IMG/VR virus record: IMGVR_UViG_3300027503_000002
Length of the DNA stretch: 64,000 nucleotides
Reading direction: 5' to 3' (one strand)
DNA from: a virus
This document shows positions 8,117 to 32,486 of this stretch, in pieces; positions within the stretch are counted from its first letter, which is position 1, and every line of letters begins with the position of its first letter. Made by a program: the position numbers and the translations under genes. The notes under the pieces were generated by a model. The model worked only from the letters and a program-made list of their open reading frames with translations, had not been told where the DNA came from and did no database searches.

Positions 8117-10321
8117 ATGAGCTTATCGTTCTCGACGCCATTAAGAAGAAATAAACCTAGAAGAAATGCTTTTATTATTTCTGCTGGAAGCTCCTCTTCT
8201 TTCGCTATTGATAAAAACGGTAAAACATGGGGATGGGGAGACAATACTAATGGAAAATTAGGAAATAATACGACAACAGAGCGCACTACACCAACAAGTA
8301 TTGCGGGAAGTGTTAAAACATTTTGTCAAATAGACAATGGATCGACCTTCTGTTCTGCTATTGATAAAAATGGTTTAGTTTGGGGATGGGGTTATGGAAA
8401 TTATGGACAATTAGGAAATGGAACTACTACAGGTGCAATGTTAACTCCCGTCAGTGTTACTGGAGTACGTAAGACATTTTGCAAAGTTGCTGTAGGGCAA
8501 AACCATGTAATTGCAATAGATCAGTACGGAAGAGCGTGGGCATGGGGAATAAATCAATATGGACAATTGGGAGATAATACTACAGTCAGCAAACGAACGC
8601 CGATAAGTGTACTTGGAGCAGTTAAAACTTTTTGTTCTTTAGCCGCAACTGCGGTTTTGGGCTCATCTTTAGCTATAGATAAAAATGGTCGGGTTTGGGG
8701 TTGGGGATATAATGGACGAGGACAGCTAGGCAGTAATTCAGTTTCCCAGCAAAATACTCCAGTTGCTATAGCTGGAGTGCTCAAAACTTTTTGTAAAATT
8801 GCTATGGGAAATGCGCACACTATTGCAATAGATAAAAATGGAAGACTTTGGGGATGGGGCTATAACAGGTATGGACAGTTGGGAAATAATGGAACTGGGA
8901 GCCAAAGAACTCCTGTTAGTATTCTGGGTGCAGTAAAAACTTTTTGTCATATAAATAATGGATATGATGTTTCTTATGCACTTGATAAGAACGGTAGAGC
9001 GTGGGCATGGGGAAATAACTCTGGAGGCGTCCTTGGAGATGGAAGCCTAATAGATAGATTTACTCCAGTTAGTGTCGCGGGAACTATTAAAACATTTTGT
9101 CAAATATCAGGAGGGATAGCTCATGCTATTGCTGTTGATAAAAATGGTAGATCTTGGGGGTGGGGGCAAAATGATATTGGTCCATTAGGAATCGGCTCAT
9201 TTCCGTTTAAATGCACTCCAGCAGCTATAGCAGGATCTATAAAAACTTTTTGTGAAATATACTCTGATTCTCATGTGGCGGCAATAGATAAAAATGGCAG
9301 GATTTGGGGATGGGGTATAAATGCTCAATATGGAACTCTTGGAGATGGCACTACCGTAATAATGAGAAAAACTCCAGTAAGTTTAGCGGGAGCTGTTAAA
9401 ACATTTTGTAAAATAATAACTTCTGCTGGAGGCGTCCATACACTCGCTATTGATAAAAATGGCCGAGCTTGGGGATGGGGATGGAATGGATATTTGCAAC
9501 TTGGAGACGGAACTAGCTCCAATCGCTGCACTCCAGTAAGCGTTGCTGGAGCAGTTAAAACATTTTGTGAAATTGGTGCGGGCAGAGGTCAAGGTTCAGC
9601 CATAGATAAAAATGGTCAAGTATGGATGTGGGGACTTAATAACACTAATCAGCTTGGCAATGGAACTTTTTCAAATTCTGCTACGCCGGTTAAAATTGGA
9701 GGTTTAGTTAAAACATTTTGTAAAATATCTACAGGTGAAAATTGGACCCTCGCAATTGAAAAGAATGGTCAAGTTTGGGCTTGGGGAAGAAATGCAAATA
9801 ATCAAACTGGAACAGGTGGTGGTGTAAATATAGCAACTCCAACAAAGATTATCGGTCTTGCAAAAACATTTTGCAAAGTAGAAGCTGCAAGAATTCATTC
9901 TATGGCTATTGATAAAAATGGCCGAGCTTGGGGATGGGGCGATAATGGATATGGAAAAATTGGAGATAATACTGTAACCTTTAGAACATCGCCAGTAAGT
10001 GTCGCCGGTGCGGTAAAAACTTTTTGCCATATAAGTGCTGGACCTAATCATACACTTGCTATTGATAAAAATGGAAGAGCATGGGCATGGGGCTTCAATC
10101 ATCGCGGTCAATTAGGCGACAACAGCAGAACTAGCCGAAGAACTCCTGTTAGTGTTGCTGGAGCAATTAAAACATTCTGCAAAATAAACTCTGGATCTAA
10201 TAATTCAATAGCTATTGATAAAAATGGAAAAGTCTGGGCTTGGGGAGATAATCCATTTGGAAGCAACGGGGATAACACTTCAGCTTTATCAGAAACTCCT
10301 GTGCAAATTTGTAGTATTTAA
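8117..10321 (+). CDS. RCC1/BLIP-II repeat protein, 14 repeats (two 7-bladed propellers)
   Basis: 14 copies of AIDKNGxxWxWGxNxxGQLG...TPV...KTFC. Confidence 0.9.
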   Translation: MSLSFSTPLRRNKPRRNAFIISAGSSSSFAIDKNGKTWGWGDNTNGKLGNNTTTERTTPTSIAGSVKTFCQIDNGSTFCSAIDKNGLVWGWGYGNYGQLGNGTTTGAMLTPVSVTGVRKTFCKVAVGQNHVIAIDQYGRAWAWGINQYGQLGDNTTVSKRTPISVLGAVKTFCSLAATAVLGSSLAIDKNGRVWGWGYNGRGQLGSNSVSQQNTPVAIAGVLKTFCKIAMGNAHTIAIDKNGRLWGWGYNRYGQLGNNGTGSQRTPVSILGAVKTFCHINNGYDVSYALDKNGRAWAWGNNSGGVLGDGSLIDRFTPVSVAGTIKTFCQISGGIAHAIAVDKNGRSWGWGQNDIGPLGIGSFPFKCTPAAIAGSIKTFCEIYSDSHVAAIDKNGRIWGWGINAQYGTLGDGTTVIMRKTPVSLAGAVKTFCKIITSAGGVHTLAIDKNGRAWGWGWNGYLQLGDGTSSNRCTPVSVAGAVKTFCEIGAGRGQGSAIDKNGQVWMWGLNNTNQLGNGTFSNSATPVKIGGLVKTFCKISTGENWTLAIEKNGQVWAWGRNANNQTGTGGGVNIATPTKIIGLAKTFCKVEAARIHSMAIDKNGRAWGWGDNGYGKIGDNTVTFRTSPVSVAGAVKTFCHISAGPNHTLAIDKNGRAWAWGFNHRGQLGDNSRTSRRTPVSVAGAIKTFCKINSGSNNSIAIDKNGKVWAWGDNPFGSNGDNTSALSETPVQICSI

Positions 10322-16379: not shown

Positions 16380-16676
16380 ATGACGGGCAAGGACTATTTA
16401 AATGACAGGGTAAAGGTTAATACTTCTGATCTTTTCAAGCGTATGCTTGGAATCCTAGAAGATATTAAGCACGAACACGACCGTCAATTTGCAATATTGT
16501 ATTCTTCGGCTCCCGATTCCTTCAAGCCTGTAGTCAAACAAGCCAATTATCTTGATGAAAATCAAATGGCTTGGTTAAGAAAAAAAGTTCTCGATATGGG
16601 CAATGAATCCATTCGAAAAATGACTACCGAAATGGATTTGATCCATATTGAATTTCATCACACATTTAAACAATGA
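16380..16676 (+). CDS. hypothetical protein
   Basis: 98-aa ORF with ATGA overlap to the next gene. Confidence 0.7.
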   Translation: MTGKDYLNDRVKVNTSDLFKRMLGILEDIKHEHDRQFAILYSSAPDSFKPVVKQANYLDENQMAWLRKKVLDMGNESIRKMTTEMDLIHIEFHHTFKQ

Positions 16677-17404
16677 AAGAACTATTCGACTTCACAGTCA
16701 AAATTAATAAGGAAGTAGAAAAAACCGAGACCCGTGAGGAAGATGGCAAGACTATCACGGTCACCAGTAAAGTAAAGGAAGACGTTCCTGTGCGGATAAT
16801 CTTCAAACAACCATCGCGCCGTGATACTGAAGACGCGGAGATTCAATTTAGCGTGGAGATGTCAAACTGCATTAAGAAGGGCATTTTGACAAAAGGAATG
16901 TTAGTTAAGAAGTACTCTGATACCGGAGGCATCTTCTCCGAAGATGATGACAAGCGTCTGACAGCAATGTACATTGATATGGCAAAAATGCAGAGAGAGT
17001 ACGTTGCTCTTGAAAATGGTTCGGCAGAAGAGAAAGAGCGTGCGAATACAATTCTGGAAAAGCTTGCCGCAACAAGAAAGGAGATGGTAGATCTTGAGTC
17101 TACATATCTTAATCTTTTCAACAATACCGCAGATGTAATTGCACAGAACAATCTAATTCGTTGGTTCTGTGTTAACCTTGCTTACAAGCAGGAGCAAAAT
17201 GGCAAGATCGAGCCGCTTTTTAACGGTTCGACTTACGAGCAAAAGCTTGACAATATGAGAGACCTTGACGAGGCAGAAGACCCTCTTTATCAAGCTACTT
17301 TCAGAAAGTTAGCCACATTTGTTTCTTTCTGGTATTACAGCAAGAATGCGACCAAGGAAGATTTCAAAAAGCTAGAGAAAGATCTTGAAGAAGGAAAGTA
17401 TTAA
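16673..17404 (+). CDS. putative tail assembly chaperone (G-like)
   Basis: Charged protein two genes upstream of the TMP. Confidence 0.5.
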   Translation: MKELFDFTVKINKEVEKTETREEDGKTITVTSKVKEDVPVRIIFKQPSRRDTEDAEIQFSVEMSNCIKKGILTKGMLVKKYSDTGGIFSEDDDKRLTAMYIDMAKMQREYVALENGSAEEKERANTILEKLAATRKEMVDLESTYLNLFNNTADVIAQNNLIRWFCVNLAYKQEQNGKIEPLFNGSTYEQKLDNMRDLDEAEDPLYQATFRKLATFVSFWYYSKNATKEDFKKLEKDLEEGKY

Positions 17405-18374
17405 CGAAATTGATTTATTCTTGGCGTTCTGCCAGATAGTAGAGGGTTGCTCTGAGAAGGTTTTCTTGGGCAACCCTGTTTTTATTAAACATATAACTAT
17501 TAAAGAGCGTGAATTCTTTAATAAGAAATATAAAGCTTATCTAGCTCACGCCATATCTAAGGGGCTTCCAAAAGAAGACGACGCCTTAAAAAAGGCAATA
17601 GAGGACGAGTTATGGTCGCAGAAAGAGGACGAAGAGATTAAAGTGTCAGAAAAATATATTGAAACACTTAATATAACCAGAAAAAAAGTATTTAAAAAGC
17701 TTCAGATTGATGAAATTGAAAAAAATATAAGGGAAGAAAAGGAAAAGGTCGCCAAAAAACTTGCAGAAAAAAAGCAAATCTTGGGAAAAACTGCCGAGGA
17801 TTATGCATCTAGTAGAGCTAGTGACTATCTGATATATAGCTGTTTTTATAAGGACAAGGAATTAAATCAACGGTTTTTTTCCGAGCAAGAGTTTGACGAA
17901 ATATCAAACAAAGAACTTGAGGAGTGTATTTTGGTTTACAATAGTTATTTTAACGATATTTCTGATTTAAATATTCAACATATTGCCATTTCTGACTTTT
18001 TCCATCCAAACTATCTTGTTTTAGATCATCCGATGGAGCTTTTTGGAAAGCCGATGACAAAACTTTCCGAAAATCAAATTAGGTTGATAATTTATGCCAA
18101 AATATTTAAAAATATATTTGAGACTGTAGAGCATATTCCAGAGGAGATAAAAAAAGATCCAGAAGCGTTATTGCAATATAAAGACAAGAATCAGGCTCAA
18201 AAAGAGTTCGAAAACAAAACAAAATCGAAGAAAAAAGGCAATGTTGATGGTGCAGAAATGGTATTCGGAGCTACAAAAGAAGAAATAGGAAAAGACACTA
18301 AGACCTTGAAAGATGTTATGAAGGATAAAACATCTCTTTCAATGGAAGACTTGATGAAATTGCACGATAAATAA
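17385..18374 (+). CDS. putative tail assembly chaperone (T-like); TTG start or frameshift product
   Basis: Directly upstream of the TMP, overlaps the previous ORF in the +1 frame, and has no early ATG. Confidence 0.5.
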   Translation: MKKESINEIDLFLAFCQIVEGCSEKVFLGNPVFIKHITIKEREFFNKKYKAYLAHAISKGLPKEDDALKKAIEDELWSQKEDEEIKVSEKYIETLNITRKKVFKKLQIDEIEKNIREEKEKVAKKLAEKKQILGKTAEDYASSRASDYLIYSCFYKDKELNQRFFSEQEFDEISNKELEECILVYNSYFNDISDLNIQHIAISDFFHPNYLVLDHPMELFGKPMTKLSENQIRLIIYAKIFKNIFETVEHIPEEIKKDPEALLQYKDKNQAQKEFENKTKSKKKGNVDGAEMVFGATKEEIGKDTKTLKDVMKDKTSLSMEDLMKLHDK

Positions 18375-18410: not shown

Positions 18411-21400
18411 ATGGCAAAAGGAATCACAGTACCTGTAGTCCAGTCGGGTTTAGAAGCCTCTATCGAGGCGGCGGCCAAAAAAGCTGGACCGCTGACTCTT
18501 TCTGCGTCTGTTGATCCTGGTTCCTTTAAAAGACTAGCCCAGCCTCTTGGTAGAGTAAGCGGTCTGGCAACAGAGTTCGAAAAGTCAATTGCCGCATCAA
18601 ATGCGCGTGTTATCGCATTCGGCGCTTCTGTAGGTATCATCAATGGCGTACAAAATGCTTTTGCTACGCTTGTTAAAACAACAATTGAAGTTGAAAAAAG
18701 CTTGGCTAATATTGCCATTATTAGCGGAAAAACTACTCAGGAACTTGAACCATTTTCCAGAGCGCTTTTTGAGATTGCCAAAACTACCTCGCAATCTTTC
18801 CAGACAGCCTCCGAGGCGGCACTAGAGTTCTCTAGACAGGGCTTGGGTCTTGAAGAAACGCTAAAAAGAACTCAGGACGCCCTTACTCTTACTCGTTTCA
18901 CAACTTTAAGCGCTGCTGAAGCCGTGGATGTACTCACGGCTGCGGCAAACTCTTTCGGAGCAACTGGAATTACAACTAGCGAGATTCTGAATAAGCTGGT
19001 TGCCGTAGATACTAAATTCGCAGTCTCTGCTGAAGACTTGGCTAAAGGCTTGTCCCGTGCTGGCTCGATTGCTCAAGAAGTTGGCGTTAGCTTTGACGAA
19101 TTAAATGCCATCGTCACAATTGCACAAGAAAGAACTGCGCGTGGTGGCGCGGTAATTGGTAACGCATTCAAGACAATTTTCACCAGAATCAGATCAGATG
19201 AAACTATCAAAGCATTGCAAAGCATTGGTATCTATTCATTTGATGCCGAAGGTAGACTGAGGCCGGTTGTAAGTCTTCTTGAGGAATTGGCTGGGAAAAT
19301 TAATACCCTTAGCGAAACCAAGAGAATCGAAGTTCTTGAGGCGATTGCTAGCAAGTACAACATCAACGTTTTGACAGCGCTTGTTGACGACTTGGGCTCA
19401 ACAGCGAGCAAGTTTAGAGAGGCGAGAGATGTTTCTGCGGGCGCGCAAAGCGAGGCATACCAGCGTCAGATTGAACTCAATCAAACTCTAGATGCAGTTA
19501 TCACAAGAGTTACAAATTCAGCCGCTCAGCTTGCTGATACTCTTGGCAGAATTGGCGTTACTGACAGCCTTAAGTCGCTTTTAAACTTTTTTGACAACAT
19601 TCTTACTGGGATTAATGACGTTATCGATTCCGAAGGAATTGGCGGCACTATTGCTAAAGGTTTAATTTCTGGACTTAGTGGAGTATTTTTCAAGATCGGC
19701 ATTCCTCTTCTTCTTGCGATATTCGTTAAGCTGACAAAAGACATTGCCCAATTCGGCACTGAGTCACTAAAAACTATCTTGGGAATCAACAAGGAAGTCA
19801 GGGAGCGCCAAGCTTTGGAACAGGCTGTTGTTAATACGCTGATCAAGGATCAGCAAGTAATGGCGACAATCCTGTCTCTAAGCGGAGATCGCAGAAAGCA
19901 AGAAGAGTATTTACTTTCTGTTTACAATAGGCAGTTAGCGGCGCTTCAGCAAGTACAAAGCATCGCGGCAAATGTTGCCCCTGCACTACAAGCCGCTGGA
20001 CTTAGCGCTACATCTGGAACGATTAAAAAGAGAGCGGCGGGAGGTTATCTGCCAGCAGAAGAGGCGAAAGATGTGCGTCGTGGAGTTGGTGGGGCCAGCC
20101 CTTCTTCTAAAGTCGTAGAGATTCCAAACTTCTCGTTTGGCGGCGGTAAGCGTGGCACGATGGTAGCAAATACCAGCGAATATATTGTGCCTAATTATGC
20201 TGGTGGTAGCGGTACGGCTATCTTTAATCAGGATATGGCGAAGGAGTATGGTCTACCGCCCGGAGCTAAAAAGATTACAGCTTCTGGTGGATTTGTGCCT
20301 GCTAATGGGTTTGTACCAAATTTTGCGGCTAAAAAATTCAATGTTTTTGATCAAGCAAAGGCTAAAGTTAAAAAAGATCAAGAGCCTATAGACTATGTAG
20401 ATCTTGATGGAATACGCAGGTCTGCATATTTAACTTTGGATGCATCAATTGATCCGGTAGGAAGATTTTCTAAATTACAATCTTCAGCGCAGCAGAAATT
20501 AACTGAAAAACTAGGACCAATCGCAGAAAATGCTAAAATTGTTCCTGACCAAGGATCAATTGAATTTGTACAAATTAATAAAAGCTTGCAAAGAGATGAT
20601 TTAGTTCAAAAAATTCGTGAAACTAAAAACAAAATTCAAGCTAATCCAAAAGCTAAAATAGATAAGGATATTGAGGATATTATCCAGTCTATTTTGCCAG
20701 AAACAAAAGGTAGTGTTGACAATAATCTTAAAGCTGCCGTCAAAACAGAACTTCAAGTTCAGGGGCCAGCAGCATTTAGGTCTGGAAATATATTAGAGGA
20801 TATTTTGTTCAAAAAAATTACTGGAACGATAGAGGGAAGAAATAGCAAAACTTGGGATTTGCCAGCAGAACAATCTGGCGCTTTTAAAAGCAGATTTGGG
20901 TTCAAATCTAAATTTGGAGACATAAAATTAGGTTCGTCAACAAGTAGTATTTCGTCATTCATTGGAAAGCATATCATTTCTCCAACGGGTCAAAATGCAT
21001 CGGGGGGCTACATTCCAAATTTTGCGCGCTACGTTTATGACGCTGACAGAGTTGATGCAGATAAAAATAACCTACTAAAGGCTATTTTAGCTTCTCGCGT
21101 CAAGAAGAATTTAATAGTTGGACCAGCGGGATCTGGTAAGTCAACTTACGGGGAGTCTCTTGGTTCATTTATAACCAATATTGCCCAGTTAACAGACGCC
21201 AGTGAGATCGATATTCTTTCAGGCGCGGCAAGAACAAAAGATGGCGGCGTTTCTAAAAACTTCCAGCAAATTTCTGATGCGGTAAATGCATCTGGAGGAA
21301 AGATCTCTTATTTGTACACTGGCAATATGGACATTCTGTCCAGAAGAACTGGAAGAATCGCAGAGGGTCCAAAACAAGGCGATCTCAGAAGCAAGAAGCA

Positions 21401-24400
21401 AATTGCAGGATCGATGTTTGCTCCGCTTAATCAGTTTGATTTTATTTCAAAAGTAAAAGGCTCTGCTAAAAACTTTGAGATGATTCGCGGCGCCAAGGGA
21501 TATGTTCCAAATTTTGCCGATAAAAAGCCAGCGACAATAAAGGGCGGAAAGGTTGATAGAAAAACATATACGGGACCAAGAGCGCTTGTTAGCGCTCAGG
21601 GTATAGCAGGCATGATTGTTCCTGACCAAGCTAATCAGGAAACAATGACTAATTATCTCAAGAAAAATCCTTGGGGCTTCCAAACAAAAGAAGACGTATA
21701 CCTTCCTCCAGAAAATAGTCTTATAACTAATGTAAGGTACAATACTTACGGCTTGAATGAGCAGGCGTTTGAAGGACAGGCTTTGAAGAAAAGCGGAACA
21801 CAAACCTTGATTGAAGCTGATGTTGAAAAAGCTGGCATAGAGATAGCGAAAAAATGGGCTACAAAATATTCAGATGAGTATGCGAAAAAGATGCCTGGCC
21901 GTTCAGTTAAAACTAATTATGATGAAAATTTTATCCGCACATCCTTTACAGAATCAGAAGGCGCCGTCTCGGCAATCTCTACTTTAGGAGGCGGTATATT
22001 TGAGTCTTCTATTAGGGCAGCTTTAGATACTCAAGTTGGACAAAGAATAGAAAAAGCACAAAAAGAAGATTCAAATAACAGGTTAGATTTCCCAGTTAAT
22101 CCATTTCTTAAAGAATTATTTGGTATTGGCGGTGGCGAGCAATTTGTAGATGCAAAGATTTCAGGAAGCCCCGGTTCAACAGGAAGAAAACTAGCTGATC
22201 AAATTGTTGCCGCTCAACTTTATAAACCATACAAAACTGTCAAGACTGCCGCAGCAGAAGGCTATATTCCAAATTTTGCACAAAAGAAACAGCAGTCTAT
22301 CTTGGCCCCATCTGGACAGTTCTATGACCTTGATACCGCTGACGCATTTCTTGCTGCATCTAATGTAAATCTTGAAGCCAAGCCATCTGCTCCAAAGGGT
22401 TTAGGGGATGAATTAAAGAAGAGAATTCTAACTTCAGCTAGAAGAGTTTATGGACCAAATGCACAGATTGGTATTTCAAGATTGCCGGGCAAGAGAGAGG
22501 CTTTCACTTCAACAGTACTGGCAAATCCAGCTTTAGCTGATGACTTCATTGCCTTGCAAAAAGCAACAACTGGTGGCGTTGGACCAGAGTCCAACACTCC
22601 AGAAGCTCTTGCAAAATTTAATAATCCAACGCCTTTTGATCCAACTCCTTGGCCAGCAGTAAGAGCGGTTGGCGGCAAAACTCGCTCGATTAAGAAGGTT
22701 GGGCCAAGATCTTTGAATGCCGCAGCGGGCTACATTCCAAACTTTGCAGATCTTTTTGTTGATTACGATTATACTATTTTTGGACAACAGCTTGGCAAGG
22801 CAACTGATTTTAATGCTCAAAAAGCATTAATTAAAAATATTCCAGAAGACCAAATGACTGAGCAGGAGCGCCAAGCTCGCGATGCTCAAATGAAGCTTTT
22901 GACTCCGTTTGGTCAAAAACTTCTGCAATCGAAGAAGCCTTTCAAACTTGCAACGGCAAGATGGAATGATTATCAACCTGGTATTGAATCCTCTTTGAAG
23001 GGTTTAGGTTTTAATGTTAATGGTGTTTTCGCTTTGGGCAGAGAGTTCTCTGAAGAGCAGTACAAGGTCGATAACCCCAAGTTTGCAGAAGAGATGAAAA
23101 AGCCAGAGGGTGAAAGAAATACTAGAGTAAAACCTAAAATCGATCCATCTGCTGCCCAGAAAAAAGCGTTGTTTTTTAAAGAGCGTGCGCCGAAAATTGC
23201 TACAGGCGATATTGATTTTGTAGATAATGATCCAGCGAACTTGCAAGCAGTAAAATCGCTGATGCCGAAAATAAATACGTTTACTCCTGATCAGTATGCG
23301 GCAAAGCTTTTGGCCCCACAGCGAGTAAAAGGAACAAAGGCTTCGCTGGGATATGTTCCGAACTTTGCTGATAATGACCCATTAAAAGAAGCTGTTAATA
23401 GAGAAGTTGGTGCTGGCGTGCCGCCCGCGCGCGTGCGCGTGACGCAGGATGAAAGATTAAAGAACTCAAAAAACCCAAATGGTCTCGCCGTTATCAACAC
23501 CAGAGACGAGCCAAATGGCAAGATTCCAAATGATTTTAGAGAAAGAGGAATGCGCGCGGCTATGGGAAGTAGAGGGTTTGTACCAAATTTTGCAGATCTT
23601 AGTACAAAACAAATTAAAGAAATTTTAGGCAAGTCTCCAAATCCAATAAGTGCAGAACGGTACACAGGTGGTGAAGGTTTTGATTACGGGGTTCAAACTC
23701 AAAAACAAGGAGATCAGAAACAGGAAGCAAATGATGAAACAAAAAAAATTGATATTGGCAAATTCCTTGTTCTTCAGACCGCAATAGTTGGAGCTACATC
23801 AGCAGTTCAGGCGTTCACAGAAGAAAATAGTAACGCGGCAAATGCTTTAGAAGGTGTAAACGCCGGTCTTTCTGGACTTGCAACATTCGCATCTTTAGCG
23901 GGAAGCGTAAACATACCTCTTAGAATATTTCTTGGTTCGTTGACGGCTTTAGCTTCCGCCGCTCCTTTGATCAGTAGAATTTTTGAAGCTCAAAAAACTC
24001 CCGCCGAAAAAGCTAGCGAGGCTTTAACAAAACTGGCTAGAGAGGCCGAAAGAACTGGTCAAAAACTCACGCCAGAAAATATTTTAGCAAAATTAACAGA
24101 AGGTCGTGCTGAAGGTAAACAAAAACAAGAGGCTGTAAAAGTTTCAGATCTTGTAGAAAAAGCAATAACTAGTACACAATCTGTTGGATTTCCAGATATT
24201 TCTAAGGACTTGATAAAACAAATAAGCGCTGTTCTGTCTGCTACTGGAAATATAACAAGAGATCAAGAGGGCAAAATCACTGGAGTTGATACGGACGCAA
24301 TTAATAAAATTTTTGCAGGGGTGATCACAAAGACAACTGAACAAGGATTAGCTAGTCAAGATTTTATGGGAGGGGTTCAACCTGGTGTTGAGCGCACAGC

Positions 24401-27400
24401 AGTAAATGAAAATTTATTGCAAGAAAATGTCATTGATCTTTTAAACGATCAAATTAAAAATGAGAAACAAAGACTTTCAATTAGACAAGAAGGTCAAGTC
24501 TTAGATAAAGTTCAACAGGCGCTTTTGACTAGGGATAATGAACTACTTTTGTCTAGACAAAAAGCGCTTGAGTCTATTTTTCAAACACAGTTAAAAATAA
24601 ATGAAAAATATAATGAAGAGTCTTTAAGAATTGAAGGCTTGTCTGCTGCACTAGAAAGAGAGAAACAGTTTAGAACAGAATCTTACACAATATCCCAAAA
24701 AGCAGCCTTAGATAAAGAAAAAGCAGAAGCGGAATATAATAAAACTGTGGCGCAGATCGCGCTTGATTTAAGAAAAAATTTAGGCGCTGGGGCTAAAGAA
24801 TCTGTGCTTGGAGGAACTCAACAGGTTCAAGACTTTTTAGGCAATTTAGATACCAGTAAATTACAAGGCTTAATTGATGGATATGCCAATGCGCTTAAAA
24901 CTAACGAGCAAGCTTTAAAAGATGGTACAGTAAAAATTGATGACGTTTTTGGTTCAGTTTGGTCAAAATTTACAGAAGGACTTGTTGGCGTTCCTCCAGA
25001 ATTAAATAACTTAATACTGGGTTCAAAAGAGCAGTTTTTAGCTTTAGTAAGATCAGCTTATGAAACTAAAGCGAATGCCGATCAGACTAGAATATTAACA
25101 AATACGCAGATTGATTTCGCCGCAACAAATTCAGAAGCTAATACAGAACTTAGAAAATTACAAAGCGCATACAAACAGAATAGGTCAAGACTGGCGTACT
25201 TGAATAGCCGCAATGACGGAAGCGAAACTCAAGATATTACATCTGATGAAGCTGCGGCAGTTGAAGAACAGTTAAATATTCAAAGAGAAAAATTAATTAC
25301 TTCCATACAAGACTTGGAAATTGCTAATGCGGAAGAAATAGCCCTGCTTCCAGAAAAGAAAAAAGCTGATTTACAAAGAGTCCTAATTACCAACGGTCAC
25401 GCAAAATCAATTCGTGAATTAACTGGAATCGATCAGGCAGCGGCAATTGCAGCTTCAAATCTTAGTGAAGAAACTGATAAAAGAGTATTTCAGTTAAAAA
25501 CTGACGCTAAAAATGCAGAACTAAAGCTTAATACAGATAATAATTTATTAAATGCAGAAACAGACTTGATCGACGCCTATAATCAAGCCTACAAAGGCAG
25601 TATCCAAACTGAAACTGTTGCAGCTAAATTAAGAAGTGCTCAATCAAAATTGACAAAATCCGAGTCTGATAAAGATGATGAATTACAAGTTCAAATTGCT
25701 CTTATACAGCAAAATTGGAAAGGTGAAAGCAGAGATATCCAAAGAAAGACTGAGCTTTTAAGAGAGCAGAATAAAAAGATCAGTGTAACTCAGCAAGCCA
25801 TACGATTAGAAGAGCAGTTAAATCTTGAAGCTGAACAGTTAATTGAAGCTAGAAGAAAAGCCTCCGCAGCGCTTTCAGAAATCAATCTGACAAAAGCGAT
25901 TGAAAATCAAATTACTTCCGCTGGAACTGCAAACATTCAGGAAATAACAAAAACAATAGTGCAAGGCCGAGCTTTAACACAAACTGGAGTACAGTCTAGT
26001 TTTGAGCAGCAGGCAAGAGCTTCGGTTTTTGAAAGAAGAATGGCTGGAAGAACAGAAGTTGATCTAAGAGAGAGTACTAATATTCTTAGTGGGAGAGACA
26101 ACTCCATTCAGCAAAATTTACAAATTCAACGAGGCGTTCTTCTCGATCAGGCCGAAACATTCCAGCAAATTATTGGTAATCAGACACCAAAACTGTTTGC
26201 GGATGGAATGGCGGAAGCGATGCAGGCTGCTCTTAATCAGGCAGATGATCTTGGTGGCGCATTAAGAAATGTTGCCCTTAACTTCCTAAAGAGCCTTCAG
26301 AGCGCATTTTTACAAAGTGCTTCAAGACAGATTGTAGCTTCTATTCTGCCAACAGGCGCGGCAAAGGGTGGCTATGTAAAGGGTTACGCAACTGGTGGTC
26401 TTGTGACTGGCGGTAGCGGATATAAGGATGATGTGCCAGCAATGTTGAGTGAGGGTGAATATGTAATTCGCAAGTCTTCTGTTAAAAAGTATGGCGCATC
26501 TAATCTACAAAAGCTAAATTCAGGAGAAGCTCCTAAGTTTGCAGCTGGTGGCATTTTCCTACCCGGTATTCGTGGCCAAACTGAAATTTCAGGCTATAAG
26601 GATTTAACCGCTTTTGCTAAACAAACAACAACAAGCGGCGCAACAGATGTATTAGCTGGCGGCGCAACAACCGCTTTTGCCAACCTTGAAGATCAAAGCT
26701 CAAGACTTTCTGCTTATGCTTTGATGAGAGAGGATGACACCATAAATCAGGAGATTCGCAGCGCTCAAGAGCAGGCTATGAATATAATGGCCGAAAGAGA
26801 AGCTTACAGAACTGCTGAAAGAAAAGCATTTCAGAAACAGCTTGTTGGAACAGTAGCCTCCGCTGCTTTAAGTTATGGAATAAATGCTGGGGTTGGAAAA
26901 TTAGGAAGTCTATTTAGTGGTGCGGCAGCGGCTGGAAAGGGTTCCGCTACTGGATTAGGTTTAATGGACCAAGTTTCTGGCAAAACTCAATTTTTGACAA
27001 ATGCGAAGCCTTTTAGTTTTCAATCTCCACCAGCATTCAATTATAGCTTTGGCCCAACAAAGGCTTATGGTGGAATGATCAAGCGTTACAACGCTGGCGG
27101 TCCAACAGACGATATTCCCGCACTTCTTATGGGTGGCGAGTATGTAATGAATCGCCAAGCAACCAAGAAATACGGTAAACAATTCTTTGATTCGATCAAT
27201 CAAGGCCGCGCTCCAAGATTTGCTGATGGCGGTCAAGTTTCCACCGCAGAGCCAAGCTTCGCTGAGAAAGCGGCGACAAGTTCTGACTCTAAAGCCGCAG
27301 GAGCTACAAATGTTAGCATCAATATCAATGTAACTGGCGGAACATCAGATACCCAGACTCAGGGTGATACCAAACAGGGCGGCATTGACTACAAGAAGAT

Positions 27401-27479
27401 GAGCGAGCAGATCAAACAAGTCGTCATCCAAACAATCAATGAGGAAAAGAGACTAGGCGGATCATTAAGAAGTAGATAA
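18411..27479 (+). CDS. tape measure protein with internal enzyme-cassette array
   Basis: N-terminal TP901-type TMP region (FSRQG, GGAVIGNAFKTIFTRI), hydrophobic segments, long coiled coil, duplicated C-terminal DDVPAMLSEGEYV / DDIPALLMGGEYV motifs. Confidence 0.9.
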   Translation: MAKGITVPVVQSGLEASIEAAAKKAGPLTLSASVDPGSFKRLAQPLGRVSGLATEFEKSIAASNARVIAFGASVGIINGVQNAFATLVKTTIEVEKSLANIAIISGKTTQELEPFSRALFEIAKTTSQSFQTASEAALEFSRQGLGLEETLKRTQDALTLTRFTTLSAAEAVDVLTAAANSFGATGITTSEILNKLVAVDTKFAVSAEDLAKGLSRAGSIAQEVGVSFDELNAIVTIAQERTARGGAVIGNAFKTIFTRIRSDETIKALQSIGIYSFDAEGRLRPVVSLLEELAGKINTLSETKRIEVLEAIASKYNINVLTALVDDLGSTASKFREARDVSAGAQSEAYQRQIELNQTLDAVITRVTNSAAQLADTLGRIGVTDSLKSLLNFFDNILTGINDVIDSEGIGGTIAKGLISGLSGVFFKIGIPLLLAIFVKLTKDIAQFGTESLKTILGINKEVRERQALEQAVVNTLIKDQQVMATILSLSGDRRKQEEYLLSVYNRQLAALQQVQSIAANVAPALQAAGLSATSGTIKKRAAGGYLPAEEAKDVRRGVGGASPSSKVVEIPNFSFGGGKRGTMVANTSEYIVPNYAGGSGTAIFNQDMAKEYGLPPGAKKITASGGFVPANGFVPNFAAKKFNVFDQAKAKVKKDQEPIDYVDLDGIRRSAYLTLDASIDPVGRFSKLQSSAQQKLTEKLGPIAENAKIVPDQGSIEFVQINKSLQRDDLVQKIRETKNKIQANPKAKIDKDIEDIIQSILPETKGSVDNNLKAAVKTELQVQGPAAFRSGNILEDILFKKITGTIEGRNSKTWDLPAEQSGAFKSRFGFKSKFGDIKLGSSTSSISSFIGKHIISPTGQNASGGYIPNFARYVYDADRVDADKNNLLKAILASRVKKNLIVGPAGSGKSTYGESLGSFITNIAQLTDASEIDILSGAARTKDGGVSKNFQQISDAVNASGGKISYLYTGNMDILSRRTGRIAEGPKQGDLRSKKQIAGSMFAPLNQFDFISKVKGSAKNFEMIRGAKGYVPNFADKKPATIKGGKVDRKTYTGPRALVSAQGIAGMIVPDQANQETMTNYLKKNPWGFQTKEDVYLPPENSLITNVRYNTYGLNEQAFEGQALKKSGTQTLIEADVEKAGIEIAKKWATKYSDEYAKKMPGRSVKTNYDENFIRTSFTESEGAVSAISTLGGGIFESSIRAALDTQVGQRIEKAQKEDSNNRLDFPVNPFLKELFGIGGGEQFVDAKISGSPGSTGRKLADQIVAAQLYKPYKTVKTAAAEGYIPNFAQKKQQSILAPSGQFYDLDTADAFLAASNVNLEAKPSAPKGLGDELKKRILTSARRVYGPNAQIGISRLPGKREAFTSTVLANPALADDFIALQKATTGGVGPESNTPEALAKFNNPTPFDPTPWPAVRAVGGKTRSIKKVGPRSLNAAAGYIPNFADLFVDYDYTIFGQQLGKATDFNAQKALIKNIPEDQMTEQERQARDAQMKLLTPFGQKLLQSKKPFKLATARWNDYQPGIESSLKGLGFNVNGVFALGREFSEEQYKVDNPKFAEEMKKPEGERNTRVKPKIDPSAAQKKALFFKERAPKIATGDIDFVDNDPANLQAVKSLMPKINTFTPDQYAAKLLAPQRVKGTKASLGYVPNFADNDPLKEAVNREVGAGVPPARVRVTQDERLKNSKNPNGLAVINTRDEPNGKIPNDFRERGMRAAMGSRGFVPNFADLSTKQIKEILGKSPNPISAERYTGGEGFDYGVQTQKQGDQKQEANDETKKIDIGKFLVLQTAIVGATSAVQAFTEENSNAANALEGVNAGLSGLATFASLAGSVNIPLRIFLGSLTALASAAPLISRIFEAQKTPAEKASEALTKLAREAERTGQKLTPENILAKLTEGRAEGKQKQEAVKVSDLVEKAITSTQSVGFPDISKDLIKQISAVLSATGNITRDQEGKITGVDTDAINKIFAGVITKTTEQGLASQDFMGGVQPGVERTAVNENLLQENVIDLLNDQIKNEKQRLSIRQEGQVLDKVQQALLTRDNELLLSRQKALESIFQTQLKINEKYNEESLRIEGLSAALEREKQFRTESYTISQKAALDKEKAEAEYNKTVAQIALDLRKNLGAGAKESVLGGTQQVQDFLGNLDTSKLQGLIDGYANALKTNEQALKDGTVKIDDVFGSVWSKFTEGLVGVPPELNNLILGSKEQFLALVRSAYETKANADQTRILTNTQIDFAATNSEANTELRKLQSAYKQNRSRLAYLNSRNDGSETQDITSDEAAAVEEQLNIQREKLITSIQDLEIANAEEIALLPEKKKADLQRVLITNGHAKSIRELTGIDQAAAIAASNLSEETDKRVFQLKTDAKNAELKLNTDNNLLNAETDLIDAYNQAYKGSIQTETVAAKLRSAQSKLTKSESDKDDELQVQIALIQQNWKGESRDIQRKTELLREQNKKISVTQQAIRLEEQLNLEAEQLIEARRKASAALSEINLTKAIENQITSAGTANIQEITKTIVQGRALTQTGVQSSFEQQARASVFERRMAGRTEVDLRESTNILSGRDNSIQQNLQIQRGVLLDQAETFQQIIGNQTPKLFADGMAEAMQAALNQADDLGGALRNVALNFLKSLQSAFLQSASRQIVASILPTGAAKGGYVKGYATGGLVTGGSGYKDDVPAMLSEGEYVIRKSSVKKYGASNLQKLNSGEAPKFAAGGIFLPGIRGQTEISGYKDLTAFAKQTTTSGATDVLAGGATTAFANLEDQSSRLSAYALMREDDTINQEIRSAQEQAMNIMAEREAYRTAERKAFQKQLVGTVASAALSYGINAGVGKLGSLFSGAAAAGKGSATGLGLMDQVSGKTQFLTNAKPFSFQSPPAFNYSFGPTKAYGGMIKRYNAGGPTDDIPALLMGGEYVMNRQATKKYGKQFFDSINQGRAPRFADGGQVSTAEPSFAEKAATSSDSKAAGATNVSININVTGGTSDTQTQGDTKQGGIDYKKMSEQIKQVVIQTINEEKRLGGSLRSR
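20307..23594 (+). repeat. seven dispersed G[FY][IV]PNFA peptide repeats within the TMP
   Basis: Copies start at 20307, 21006, 21498, 22260, 22728, 23349 and 23574. Confidence 0.95.
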
Positions 27480-28249: not shown

Positions 28250-29211
28250 TGTCATTTCTATACGACAGAGATTATAATGTCACAGGAACGGTTCAAACAA
28301 CGTTTGATTTTAAACCGTCTTATGGAACCTCTGTCAATTTTTCGGCGGATTTAAGCTCTTATGTTACTGTCGATAATTATTTATATTCAATGCCAAGAGG
28401 AATGAATCATTTGCAGATGACGGTGCAAATGCCATTTGAAAACAGAAAAGAGGCTGAAGCTACAAGAATTGCCAGTTTCTTTGAGAATCTTCGCGGCACA
28501 GGATATTTCACTTTTACCGATCCAGCTTCGATATACAAGCCAGTTAATTTATTTTGCGGCGGAATTCAAACTAATTTCACAGTCAATGATCTTTATACAA
28601 TACAAGTCGAATTGGCTACGGATCAAGTTTCGTCTCTTTTAAATTGGAATGGAATGTTTGTTACGGGCTCTGGCATAAAGGGAAGTTGGGCCACATCTAC
28701 TGCGTATTCAAAATACGATGTTGTCAGACATACTGGCAATGCATCTTTCCCGCAGAATACCGGCAACTTATATGATTGCTTTTATTACTGTACTGGCGAT
28801 CACACAAGCCAGTCTTCCATCAATGGCTCAGAAATTACCAACGGAAAATGGACGCAGGAGTTCTTTTTTCAGCCAACTTACTCGTCAACGGTGGGCAAAG
28901 AGACTTCTACTTTAAAGACAGAGTTGCCGTATTCATTCACAAAAAGAAGCGATTTTGGACTGCACGGAAATGTTCTAAAACAATTTACGATGGAGTTTAA
29001 GGGAATCACTGATCTTGAGGCGAGATCGATTTTACACTTTCTAACTGGAAGACAGGGCTATAGAAAGTTCCAGTATAAAATACCAAATATATATAATAAA
29101 AACAAATACTTTTTTGCACCAGAGTGGAAGCACACTTTTGTTTATAAAAATGTAAATGATATTTCAGTAACGCTGGTGGAAGATCCTGTCGGCATAAGGA
29201 GGGTTTACTAA
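28249..29211 (+). CDS. minor tail protein (distal-tail-like, internally duplicated)
   Basis: Two similar halves (F.PSY/F.PTY; FFENLRGTGYF / FLTGRQGYRKF); located just downstream of the TMP. Confidence 0.55.
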   Translation: MSFLYDRDYNVTGTVQTTFDFKPSYGTSVNFSADLSSYVTVDNYLYSMPRGMNHLQMTVQMPFENRKEAEATRIASFFENLRGTGYFTFTDPASIYKPVNLFCGGIQTNFTVNDLYTIQVELATDQVSSLLNWNGMFVTGSGIKGSWATSTAYSKYDVVRHTGNASFPQNTGNLYDCFYYCTGDHTSQSSINGSEITNGKWTQEFFFQPTYSSTVGKETSTLKTELPYSFTKRSDFGLHGNVLKQFTMEFKGITDLEARSILHFLTGRQGYRKFQYKIPNIYNKNKYFFAPEWKHTFVYKNVNDISVTLVEDPVGIRRVY

Positions 29212-32200
29212 TGGGCAGACCAATCTCATATGAAATGCAAATGATGTTTGTTGGTTCCTCTGGCGCTTTTGAGGAGGCGATGAACACGGGCAGCGGAATC
29301 AGTCGTCTTGATTTTATTCAGGGCTACGACTTCTCTTTCAATATTGAAAGAACTCCGCTGAAACAAATCGGCTCCGATTCGTTTGCTACAAGGCAGACTC
29401 AGCTTGCGCCGGATGTTAATTTAAATATTCAATACTATTTGAATGATGGCTGGAATGATAAGTATATTGGACTGGATATACCGACAGGTACGACTGGTAA
29501 CCCATTCGATTCTATTCTTTCGTCTACTGGCGACCGTAATTTCTATATCAGTATCGCGCAGAATGATGGAATGGATCAGAACTTACAAACAGGAATTGTT
29601 AATAGTAATATTCTCGCGATTGGTAACGCCTATATTACTAACTATGAAATCAGTGTGGCAGTTAATCAGCTGGCGACTGTTTCGTGTTCTTTTGTGGGCG
29701 CAAATGCTAATGTGCAAGATTATGCGACTTCGAAGTACTTACCATCGGTAAATACCCTTGTTAGTGGCCAAAATGCTCAAGATGCAAATAAAAATTTCTC
29801 GTTAAACTTTGTCAATAACTCAAGAACTGAAAGGTATTTGCCAAAAGCAAAGGAAGTATTTAATGGCGGATGTCCTTACAGTAAATGTAAGATTACCCCA
29901 GACTTTCAGTCAGGTGGCGGCACTTCGCCAATTACTTTTGGCTTCTTTGACGCGATTGCCAACAACTTCCAGAGTATGCAATTCTCTGTTCAGTTTGAAC
30001 GCAAGGCTCTTTATGGGTTTGGCAATAATCATCCATACATTAGAAAAATTCAAAGACCAACAGTTGCCACATTATCTTTGTCGGCGCTGATTGATGATTT
30101 TCAAGCTGAAAATTTGAGTAAGGTTTTTCACGCTGAAGGTGGAACTCAGAAATCAATGTTGATTGAGTTTTTTAATTTAGAAGACGTTAAAAAGTTTGGG
30201 TTGTCGTTACAAAACCTAACGCTTGAGTCTTATAACCTTGGAGCAAGAATTGGAGACAGGGTTTTAGTAGAAACTAATTGGAGCGTTGAGGTTAAGAACG
30301 GCGCAGGGGCAGATATTGGTATGGTTGGGTCTTATGGACCGCCGCTTCTTGATGTAACAAAAGTTAATGAGTCTTTTGCAGTTGAGAGGTTATTTTTTCA
30401 AGCGGCTGCATCAGACGCTGGACAGTCTTTTGCTATCGATAAAAATGGAACACTATGGGGTTGGGGAGTCAATACTTACTGGTCAGAGAATTTCCGCGTT
30501 AATACAATTAATTCTTTAGAAGGTCAAGTGGCAACTCCTACAAAAATAATAGGCGCTAATCGTACTTTTTGTAAAGTAGTATCTACGGGAGGAGGCTTTA
30601 GCGCTATAGACAAAAAAGGTAAAGTCTGGAGTTGGGGGCCAAACAATTATGGTCAAATTGGAGACGGCTCTACAACAAGTCGCACATTGCCAACATCTTT
30701 ATATGGCAATAAAACATTTTGTGAAATATCTGGGACTTTTGATAGAAAAGTAGGCTTAGATAAAAACGGTAAGCTTTGGGCTTGGGGGCAATTAAGTAAT
30801 TCTCCGGCAGTATGCTCTTCAACTCCAGTAGCAGTTTATCAAGACAAGACATTCTGTAAAATATCTAATGCTTCGGATTTTATCGACAAAAATGGTAAAG
30901 CTTGGGCGTGGAGTTATCCAAATCCAACTGCTGTCGGCGGTAATAAAACATTCTCCGAAATATCCTCAGCTGGTAATTATACGCTTGCGATAGATAAATA
31001 TGGAAAGGCTTGGGGCTGGGGATATAACGGTGCTAATAATATTGGAAGCGGAAGTAGCATTCCAGATTTTGTCAATTCTAATAGTCCAATAGCTGTTTAT
31101 GGAAATAAAACATTTTGTAAAATATTTGCAAGAGATGAATTTAACGGAATTGGAACCTCTTTTGCAATTGATAAAAATGGCAAAGCTTGGGGATGGGGAG
31201 CGAATGGATATGGACAGTTAGGAGATAATTCGATAATAAATAGATGCACGCCAGTGGCAGTTTGTGGAAATAAAATATTTTCTAATATTTATATTGGATA
31301 TACTACAGCGAGTTGGACTGCGGCGGACGATATTCCCCGTCCTTTTGTTATTGGAATAGATAATAACAATACAGCTTGGAGTTGGGGAAGTAATTTAGCA
31401 GGAACTTTAGGAAACGGTAATAAACATTACCATTGTGTTCCTATTTTAGTTAATAGCGCTAGAACATTCTGTAAAATAGCGGCTAATGCATACACTTCTC
31501 TTACATTAGATAAAAATGGTCTGGCTCAATTTTCTGGATTCACTAATATTTATGGAAATAAAACCGTATGCGAAATTGGTCTTTCTTTGGAAAGTTACTA
31601 TATAATAGATAATGCTGGTAAAGCTTGGGCTTGGGGGACCAATGACTTTGGGCAGTTGGGAGATAATTCAATAACTTCTCGGGCTACTCCAGTTCAGGTA
31701 TATGGCAGTAAAACTTTTTGTAAAATTATAGGAAACAATGCAACATTCAGCGGCGATGCATTTGCACTCGCTATAGATAAATATAATAAAGCTTGGGCGT
31801 GGGGCATAAATACTAGGGGGCAGCTTGGAAATAATTCTATAACTAGTAGGCGTACTCCTGTCGCAGTTTGCGGAAACAAAACATTTTGTCAAATATGTGC
31901 TGGATATGATCACGTTCTCGCAATTGACAAAAATGGTAAAGCTTGGGGCTGGGGAGGTAATTACTTTGGAGCAGTTGGAGATGGCTCTACAGTATGTAGA
32001 AGCTCGCCAGTTGCTGTTTATGGAAATAAAACATTTTGTAAAATATTTGCTATGAATGCTTTATCTATAGCAATAGATAAAGATAATAAATTATGGGGAT
32101 GGGGATATGACCAAAGTGTCATTACAAATAGTGAAGCTATTTTGACTCCTAAAAGAATAATAATTGGCAGTTTAAATAATAATTTTTGTGATGTGGCTCT

Positions 32201-32486
32201 TGGAGGAAGCTATGGTGGATATATGTTTTTAGACACCAATGGAAAAGCGTGGGCGTGGGGATATAACGTATGCGGTCTTTTAGGGTTAAATACAAACGCT
32301 CCTGTTTTGTCGCCAAGACAAATTTGTGGAAACAATTCTTTTTATAAAATAGGTGTTATATCAAGTGAATTTGATGGCGCCTGTTATGCAATTGATAAAT
32401 CAAATAGATTGTGGGGCTGGGGGCAAATCGGGATATATACAAATAATTCAAATTATAAAACTCCCTCTAGGATCTATAACAAGTAA
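29211..32486 (+). CDS. tail-tube-paralog domain fused to 14 RCC1 repeats
   Basis: N-terminal APDVNLNIQYYL and IGNAYITNY shared with the tube candidate; RCC1 repeats from about 30400. Confidence 0.8.
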   Translation: MGRPISYEMQMMFVGSSGAFEEAMNTGSGISRLDFIQGYDFSFNIERTPLKQIGSDSFATRQTQLAPDVNLNIQYYLNDGWNDKYIGLDIPTGTTGNPFDSILSSTGDRNFYISIAQNDGMDQNLQTGIVNSNILAIGNAYITNYEISVAVNQLATVSCSFVGANANVQDYATSKYLPSVNTLVSGQNAQDANKNFSLNFVNNSRTERYLPKAKEVFNGGCPYSKCKITPDFQSGGGTSPITFGFFDAIANNFQSMQFSVQFERKALYGFGNNHPYIRKIQRPTVATLSLSALIDDFQAENLSKVFHAEGGTQKSMLIEFFNLEDVKKFGLSLQNLTLESYNLGARIGDRVLVETNWSVEVKNGAGADIGMVGSYGPPLLDVTKVNESFAVERLFFQAAASDAGQSFAIDKNGTLWGWGVNTYWSENFRVNTINSLEGQVATPTKIIGANRTFCKVVSTGGGFSAIDKKGKVWSWGPNNYGQIGDGSTTSRTLPTSLYGNKTFCEISGTFDRKVGLDKNGKLWAWGQLSNSPAVCSSTPVAVYQDKTFCKISNASDFIDKNGKAWAWSYPNPTAVGGNKTFSEISSAGNYTLAIDKYGKAWGWGYNGANNIGSGSSIPDFVNSNSPIAVYGNKTFCKIFARDEFNGIGTSFAIDKNGKAWGWGANGYGQLGDNSIINRCTPVAVCGNKIFSNIYIGYTTASWTAADDIPRPFVIGIDNNNTAWSWGSNLAGTLGNGNKHYHCVPILVNSARTFCKIAANAYTSLTLDKNGLAQFSGFTNIYGNKTVCEIGLSLESYYIIDNAGKAWAWGTNDFGQLGDNSITSRATPVQVYGSKTFCKIIGNNATFSGDAFALAIDKYNKAWAWGINTRGQLGNNSITSRRTPVAVCGNKTFCQICAGYDHVLAIDKNGKAWGWGGNYFGAVGDGSTVCRSSPVAVYGNKTFCKIFAMNALSIAIDKDNKLWGWGYDQSVITNSEAILTPKRIIIGSLNNNFCDVALGGSYGGYMFLDTNGKAWAWGYNVCGLLGLNTNAPVLSPRQICGNNSFYKIGVISSEFDGACYAIDKSNRLWGWGQIGIYTNNSNYKTPSRIYNK

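Follow-up and report, generated by a model that had tools for sequence, protein, structure and literature searches.

A repeated junction peptide delimits an exchangeable array of enzyme-like domains inside a phage tape measure protein

Why should the protein that measures a phage tail carry, in its middle, a row of enzyme-like domains separated by copies of one short peptide? The question is raised by IMG/VR virus record IMGVR_UViG_3300027503_000002, of which a stretch of 64,000 nucleotides (nt), hereafter the window, was analyzed, and within it by the gene at 18411-27479, whose product is the TP901-type tape measure protein (TMP) of a large uncultured phage. An earlier note had proposed that copies of G[FY][IV]PNFA divide this TMP into enzyme cassettes and that the whole is a polyprotein delivering interchangeable effectors to the host along with the DNA. 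In the common view a TMP sets tail length and forms a channel, and carries a wall-degrading domain at most. The protein described here is a fixed scaffold around a plug-in array of basic, independently folding, enzyme-like domains joined by a peptide that is itself under selection. Whole modules have been added, dropped and exchanged exactly at that peptide, and the tail therefore probably also carries ready-made enzymes into the host.

PF10145 (PhageMin_Tail) matches aa (amino acids) 123-312 of the protein with an expectation value (E) of 1e-27 and 97.7 bits against a curated Pfam cut-off of 33.2, and several PHROG TMP families match the 3022-aa open reading frame (ORF), down to E 5e-48. Fibre and minor-tail genes lie on both sides of it, and the window also encodes glycosyltransferases, a UvsX-like recombinase and a DnaB-type helicase.

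Seven exact copies of G[FY][IV]PNFA begin at aa 633, 866, 1030, 1284, 1440, 1647 and 1722 of the TMP, leaving inter-motif segments of 226, 157, 247, 149, 200 and 68 aa. The composition of the TMP predicts 1.4e-5 copies by chance, and none arose in 20,000 shuffles. Degenerate copies precede the array (AAGGYLP from nt 20034, IPNFS at 20121 and VPNYA at 20187). Positions, segment lengths and degenerate copies are all as the earlier note had given them, and its definition of the motif captured the core but not the full extent: among relatives, the family-wide logo reads A(65%)-[AS](94%)-x-G-[YF]-[IV]-P-N-[FY]-A(79%), ten residues with an A-[AS]-x lead and nothing conserved after the final position. 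The seven copies use different synonymous codons. This variation at synonymous positions indicates that selection acts on the peptide and not on the DNA, and it rules out the motif as a mere DNA-level repeat or recombination signal. Within the window the motif is restricted to the TMP, and 10 of the 11 matches in four related near-complete genomes are likewise in the TMP. The eleventh is a chance GYVPNFD, without the flanking Ala, in a 239-aa LAGLIDADG-type homing endonuclease at 496-1215 (+) of L092 (G001:C1), a related 140-kb phage genome. Since the other proteins of the window and of the four related genomes lack the motif, save for this chance match, a general morphogenetic-protease site was rejected as its identity. 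The motif strings are absent from the searchable literature.

Comparison with relatives reveals what the peptide delimits. Searching 5.8 billion proteins with aa 540-1760 as the query yielded 544 relatives; every one listed is a metagenomic TMP of giant size and TP901 type, in which the motif occurs 1 to 11 times at variable spacing. IMG/VR holds at least 570 related loci, and no relatives of the array were found among GenBank phages by megablast or tblastn. A locus search with a single peptide stretch gave no match, and a cassette-2 profile search of the loci returned 8 loci only, swamped by generic P-loop patterns. When 194 unique TMPs were cut at the motif and the pieces clustered, 594 cassettes fell into 47 families and 68 architectures, with inversions of cassette order among them (1-0 in 77 cases, 0-1 in 23). 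The N-terminal part ends at aa 635 +/- 7 in 157 full-length relatives, and the array that follows spans 215-1877 aa with a median of 435; at about 1015 aa, the array of the window TMP lies near the 95th percentile. Thus, the cassettes vary in number and identity between fixed flanks. Homology coverage, computed over 119 relatives, steps at the motifs: it falls from 117 to 44 at aa 633, rises from 38 to 96 at 866, falls from 101 to 58 at 1030 and from 30 to 13 at 1284, rises from 37 to 110 at 1647 and falls from 113 to 53 at 1722.

The breakpoints can be located at nucleotide resolution in three close relatives, L087, L089 and L090, which are 87-93% identical to the window in the flanks. DNA identity to them stops at the end of one motif and resumes at the start of another, with segment 5 replaced in one relative (between aa 1446 and 1647) and deleted in another, and with segments 1-3 replaced in the third (between aa 641 and 1281). 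Breakpoints relative to L087 and L089 fall at motif copy 1, and a further one relative to L087 lies 3 aa upstream of copy 4. Identity to L090 and L089 stops at copy 5 (aa 1446/1447), and identity to all three restarts exactly at copy 6. The lone re-entry away from a motif edge is at aa 844 in L089, about 22 aa upstream of copy 2. Cassettes are gained, lost and exchanged by recombination at the junction peptide.

Structure prediction places the same boundaries between folded units. AlphaFold2, supplied with family alignments, was used to build two models, one of cassettes 2 and 3 together and one of cassette 3 alone. In the first, the two cassettes fold as separate compact domains, and the three motifs included have predicted local distance difference test scores (pLDDT) below 50. 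Cassette 3 alone reaches a pLDDT of 80.5 and a predicted template-modelling score of 0.71, with its motifs in the low-confidence ends. Across both models the motif linkers between confidently folded domains range in pLDDT from <50 to 68, and because the motifs occupy such low-confidence linkers, domain boundaries coincide with them. Neither segment 2 nor segment 3 is modelled as the ordinary TMP helices that the earlier note had named as the outcome that would speak against its proposal. With domain boundaries, homology steps and recombination breakpoints all coinciding with the motif, and with variable cassettes set between conserved flanks, its central claim of interchangeable cassettes delimited by the motif is well founded.

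What the cassettes resemble is best seen in those with conserved catalytic signatures; their occurrence was counted over 191 related TMPs. Cassette 2, found in 108 of them, reads as a predicted P-loop kinase-like phosphotransferase, and it was compared with kinases of the NMP kinase, polynucleotide kinase and zeta-toxin type. Its Walker A motif is GPAGSGKST, in which K910 and T912 are invariant (20 sequences), and D877, D879, R880, R978, R979, R982, D991 and R993 are also invariant, with D934 nearly so. The first strand of the domain begins right after the motif in the AlphaFold2 model. PDB sequence profiles recovered only the P-loop, and a search for free-standing homologues of 86-275 aa gave none. 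Two other viral contigs, L085 (7950-8393) and L086 (7929-8423), encode distant relatives of this cassette, at 33% and 28% identity, respectively.

Cassette 5, present in 16 TMPs, carries the four motifs of the HAD superfamily: motif I (D1451-Y-D1453-Y-T1455) is invariant in alignment A5 and reads DWDGT in short-form relatives, and motifs II-IV (T1515, K1585 and D1605, the last within VDN/VDD) are invariant too. Protein-language-model (Atlas) features relate it at 0.93 to the phage T5 dNMPase PF26880 (14 of 30 matches) and also to clusters of PF10307, PF11019 and PF00702. Its hhalign comparison with T5 Dmp is weak (E 0.004, probability 9%), with the HAD motifs lining up, and cassette 5 has no Pfam match at E <= 5 and no PDB profile match. 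We therefore describe it as a HAD-like phosphatase whose closest counterpart, by language-model features, appears to be the T5 deoxynucleotidase. A split polynucleotide kinase-phosphatase pair was considered for the two cassettes and is weakened by their distribution, HAD cassettes accompanying the P-loop cassette in just 7 of 16 TMPs.

Cassette 3 is found in 139 TMPs, and its homologues number 454 cluster representatives, essentially all of them TMPs. G1194, E1198, D1226 and K1249 are invariant in 45 sequences that share 17-50% identity save for two close relatives, and an Asp or Glu stands two residues before the Lys. Cassette 1, present in 12 TMPs and without a Pfam or PHROG match, aligns to the cassette-3 family in hhalign (probability 81%, E 1.2e-5) with the E, D and DxK residues in register, which supports the view that the two are paralogous. 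Their shared signature fits a PD-(D/E)xK-type metal site. Cassette 3 found no credible fold match in the PDB (Foldseek), in a re-ranked Foldseek list, among ~48,000 representative PDB chains (VIA-align), in BFVD or in the ESM Atlas; as these structure searches yielded neither a nuclease nor a convincing fold, the PD-(D/E)xK assignment is made from sequence only. Cassette 4 (14 TMPs) is highly conserved, lacks a Pfam match and reaches Atlas feature scores of at most 0.87, to unnamed clusters only. Taken together, the enzyme calls of the earlier note find support for segments 2 and 5, in an invariant Walker A with a predicted P-loop kinase-like fold and in four conserved HAD motifs with HAD-like features. 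Its PD-(D/E)xK-like label holds for the conserved E/D/(D/E)xK core of segments 1 and 3 but not for a nuclease fold, which no structure search recovered.

At least three different types of enzyme-like domain are therefore combined in one TMP, and the segments share further properties. All six are basic (pI, the isoelectric point, 9.0-10.0), whereas the scaffold is acidic (~5.2). Pfam matched none of the six segments or of 20 cassette-family representatives, PHROGs gave nothing above Walker-A-level matches for the cassettes, and free-standing homologues of the two commonest cassette families were absent from 1.8 billion cluster representatives.

The array is bracketed by two modules of its own. 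A pre-array module is present in 80 of 80 related loci, with 29 invariant columns, and the 68-aa terminal cassette is present in 78 of the 80, almost always last, with 13 invariant residues; the second half of the former resembles the latter (hhalign probability 69%, E 4e-5). Segment 6 is thus a universal scaffold or closing module and not variable cargo, and for this segment the idea of interchangeable effectors has to be given up. Most relatives have one more motif copy inside the terminal cassette, which closes with ...NTRDEPxGxIPNFA; in the window this copy is degenerate (IPNDF) (alignment A7). The C-terminal modules of the scaffold are common to TMPs of cultured Ralstonia, Gordonia, Nitrincola, Rhizobium, Paracoccus and Mycobacterium siphophages. 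Derivation of the junction motif from a shortened copy of this widespread C-terminal module is not supported, since hhalign comparisons of that module with the pre-array and terminal modules were not significant (E 0.14 and 0.12). Three relatives (P0064, P0068 and P0097) carry lysozyme (PF00959), GH19 (PF00182) or SLT (PF01464) domains beyond the array, in the distal helical half (aa ~1860-2160); no muralytic domain is detectable by Pfam in the TMP of this window.

Table 1. Position of the array and scaffold features of the tape measure protein within the window
Feature	Position	Strand	Properties and basis
Tape measure protein gene (P0001)	18411..27479	+	3022 aa; longest ORF of the window
Transmembrane-like, strongly hydrophobic helix (aa 417-446), 5' of array	19659..19748	+	Kyte-Doolittle peak 2.09
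Conserved pre-array module (aa 540-632)	20028..20306	+	contains degenerate GGYLP, IPNFS, VPNYA; relatives
Junction motif copy 1, GFVPNFA	20307..20327	+	sequence
Cassette 1	20328..21005	+	226 aa, pI 9.5; E797...D816...D837-x-K839 core; apparent paralogue of cassette 3
Junction motif copy 2, GYIPNFA	21006..21026	+	sequence; pLDDT <50 in AlphaFold model
Cassette 2, predicted P-loop kinase-like domain	21027..21497	+	157 aa, pI 9.8; Walker A and predicted fold
Junction motif copy 3, GYVPNFA	21498..21518	+	sequence; low-confidence linker in both AlphaFold models
Cassette 3, alpha/beta domain, core cassette	21519..22259	+	247 aa, pI 9.0; alignment and model
Junction motif copy 4, GYIPNFA	22260..22280	+	sequence
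Cassette 4	22281..22727	+	149 aa, pI 10.0; inter-motif segment
Junction motif copy 5, GYIPNFA	22728..22748	+	sequence
Cassette 5, HAD-superfamily phosphatase-like domain	22749..23348	+	200 aa, pI 9.3; motifs and features
Junction motif copy 6, GYVPNFA	23349..23369	+	sequence
Terminal cassette (segment 6)	23370..23573	+	68 aa, pI 10.0; closing module of array
Junction motif copy 7, GFVPNFA	23574..23594	+	sequence
Hydrophobic helices (aa 1785-1859), 3' of array	23763..23987	+	hydropathy
Acidic helix-rich 'ruler' region (aa 1860-2640)	23988..26330	+	composition, pI 5.2
Two C-terminal TMP modules	26352..27266	+	GG...DDVPAxLxxGEYV...YG...N.G..P.FA.GG; alignment A8

What might such an array do? Our overall reading, to which we assign a probability of roughly 0.55, is that the scaffold holds a swappable array of nucleotide- or nucleic-acid-directed enzymes that act at the cytoplasmic side of the entry channel early in infection. 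The fixed part consists of the first 632 aa, which include the TP901 domain and one membrane-like helix, and of the hydrophobic helices, helical ruler and C-terminal modules that follow the array. The ten-residue AAxG[YF][IV]PNFA joins each domain to the next and may act as a signal for how each cassette is handled. TMPs exit the tail before the DNA does and build the channel through which it enters (PMC10770324), and the array would be expected to exit with the TMP, likewise ahead of the DNA. A kinase needs ATP, so that a cytoplasmic site of action is suggested rather than a periplasmic one. From this requirement, the early exit of TMPs and the location of the array between membrane-like helices, we infer that the array would act at the channel's cytoplasmic face or farther in, during the first moments of infection. 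Its targets are likely to be nucleotides or nucleic acids, approached with an ATP-dependent P-loop kinase-like domain, a HAD-like phosphatase and two paralogous E/D/(D/E)xK domains, and it would supply ready-made the kind of functions that phage T5 obtains from its pre-early genes.

Several considerations weigh against this interpretation. The array is known here from genes alone, and its presence in the virion, its ejection, its cleavage and its catalytic activity are predictions. The lumen of a tail tube is about 4 nm wide, and three copies of ~1000 aa of folded domains are hard to fit into it; since there is no room for the folded domains of three chains next to one another, storage would have to be in an unfolded state or at another site. 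Finally, Pfam found no protease domain in the TMP, and neither S78 nor ClpP prohead proteases were detected in the four related near-complete genomes, nor was S77, in a search that lacked a positive control and is uninformative.

The handling of the junction peptide bears directly on how the array would work. We tentatively favor a proteolytic release site, at odds somewhat short of even, and see about one chance in three that the peptide is an uncleaved docking or packing handle, with the remainder left to some other role. Each of the first two roles has a fuller model built around it. If the TMP is a true polyprotein, every junction is cut, either by a protease of phage or host origin or autocatalytically at the conserved Asn, and soluble effectors are freed into the host cytoplasm. 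The one-sided conservation of the motif, ten residues and then none past the final Ala, is what is seen at many protease sites, the first strand of the P-loop domain starts directly after the motif, and the models place the motif in exposed linkers. Lambda gpH and T5 pb2 are processed TMPs, a further point in favor of cleavage. Against these stand the failure to find a protease in the TMP or the four related genomes, the lack of the motif (one chance match aside) in the other proteins of those genomes and of the window, and the consequence that cuts at the first and last copies would also separate the N-terminal 632 aa from the ruler. On balance we consider a polyprotein unlikely, at just under one chance in three.

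The same low rating applies to a tethered cargo, in which the motif is a linear peptide bound by a partner such as the tube lumen, a tail assembly chaperone or the pre-array and terminal modules. Binding would order and pack the cassettes, which would remain covalently linked to the TMP and function where its channel opens. Such a role is attractive given one motif per cassette, the array ends included, and given an aromatic and hydrophobic peptide in a disordered linker under protein-level selection. The related pre-array and terminal modules bracket the array, membrane-like helices lie on either side of it, and phage P23-45 provides a precedent for a TMP enzyme associated with the pore. The partner is hypothetical, however, and in the AlphaFold monomer models the motifs paired with nothing.

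Improbable, in our judgment, is a role confined to the producing cell or to tail assembly, for example as an assembly nucleoside triphosphatase or in late nucleotide salvage. Here the cassettes would be removed before the virion is completed, or would have no role afterward, and the TMP gene would be a convenient, highly expressed late carrier. Poor accommodation of folded domains in a tail tube is what such a model would explain, but enzymes that need no link to the tail would hardly be expected to lack free-standing versions in 1.8 billion cluster representatives, and the array always occupies the same internal position between scaffold modules. That the cassettes are non-catalytic filler (structural spacers or plugs, or a fast-varying decoy, with enzyme-like motifs as relics) is suggested by the 20 cassette families without a Pfam match and by the lack of a fold match for cassette 3, but is very improbable given compact domains of good pLDDT and a Walker A Lys and Thr with lid arginines, a DxDxT and an E/D/K set that are invariant at 17-30% identity.

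A bolder proposal is that the junction peptide is a self-sufficient, portable 'load-and-release' tag: any domain placed between two copies within this TMP scaffold would be packed into the tail, would leave it before the DNA and would be released, or at least positioned, in the cytoplasm of the host. We regard this as speculative, with perhaps one chance in four of being right.

How does the array compare with known systems? Mycobacteriophage TM4, with an Rpf-like motif, and T5 pb2, with a peptidase, exemplify cell-wall hydrolase domains or motifs embedded in TMPs. The family described here is similar in having enzyme domains inserted in the TMP, and some of its members also carry lysozyme, GH19 or SLT domains. 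These muralytic domains, however, sit in the distal half outside the motif-fenced array, whose cassettes instead resemble enzymes of nucleotide or nucleic-acid chemistry. Among experimentally studied systems, gp96 of Thermus phage P23-45 comes closest: it is a 5002-aa TMP with an N-terminal virion RNA polymerase that its authors proposed to act at the TMP pore (PMC10770324). Like the window TMP, it is of giant size and extends beyond a plain ruler, in its case by a cytoplasm-acting enzyme that enters with the tail protein. It differs in having one large N-terminal enzyme and no repeated junction peptide, cassette array or reported module swapping, and no sequence relationship between the two proteins was found.

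Polyvalent proteins are large multi-enzyme proteins, mosaic and sometimes processed, for which entry into the cell together with the incoming DNA has been proposed (Iyer et al. 2017, PMC5512222). They share with the window TMP the combination of several unrelated enzyme-type domains in one phage polypeptide but have no common delimiting peptide. TMPs are mentioned 0 times in that study (Iyer et al. 2017, PMC5512222). Apart from PF10145, Pfam detected no domain in the TMP or in the representatives of 20 cassette families, and hence no peptidase and none of the polyvalent markers (the processing metallopeptidase is one); among the 120 relatives listed it found only PF10145 and muralytic domains. 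Sle1-type effectors of actinobacterial contractile injection systems likewise pair a TMP-like scaffold with an exchangeable functional domain and are loaded into the tube and ejected (PMC13277306), but theirs is a single C-terminal domain in a bacterial injection system rather than a phage, without a repeated junction motif. In phage T5 (NC_005859), Dmp deoxynucleotidase and A1-dependent degradation of host DNA offer a functional parallel, since nuclease-like and nucleotidase-like activities at the start of infection would resemble those predicted for the array; T5, however, makes Dmp and A1 from first-step-transfer DNA and not within its TMP. The architecture described here thus differs from these systems in that a TMP, in hundreds of phages, contains several recombining cassettes arrayed between motif copies, and the literature searched offers no description of such an array.

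A large uncultured phage family uses its TMP as a chassis for exchangeable modules, predicted to be nucleotide-directed and enzyme-like and joined by a peptide dedicated to them. If delivery does occur, the modules would represent a general route for bringing pre-made enzymes into the cell before gene expression, with a bearing on counter-defence and host shut-off, as well as a source of dozens of unannotated enzyme families and a natural design for engineered cargo delivery by phage tails. Should the peptide prove to be a load-and-release tag, this widespread aquatic phage family would amount to a natural plug-and-play protein-injection system, and its at least 47 Pfam-orphan families to a large untapped pool of enzymes for host takeover and counter-defence.

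The surroundings of the TMP gene yield a few further observations. Two plus-strand ORFs, at 16673-17404 (243 aa) and 17385-18374 (329 aa), adjoin its 5' side and overlap by 20 nt, with the second read in the +1 frame; Pfam and PHROGs matched neither. Their position suggests that they encode tail assembly chaperones, possibly with a programmed frameshift, and no slippery heptamer is obvious in 17340-17420. The same trio, of 98-, 243- and 329-aa ORFs, precedes the TMP in relatives. Farther away, two large tail-module proteins encoded on the plus strand at 8117-10321 and 29211-32486 flank the TMP region at a distance and contain RCC1-like repeat regions (phrog_4219; E 5e-86 and 8e-32, respectively). 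A 1460-aa ORF at 3-4385 (+), open at the 5' end of the window, combines collagen-like and tail-fibre repeats and matches many PHROG fibre families. On the other side, an Ig/Hoc-like virion protein (phrog_3995 and phrog_2973) is encoded at 35329-37545 (+). A series of genes downstream of it, to ~54100, codes among other things for a glycosyltransferase, an aminotransferase and a nucleotide-sugar epimerase.

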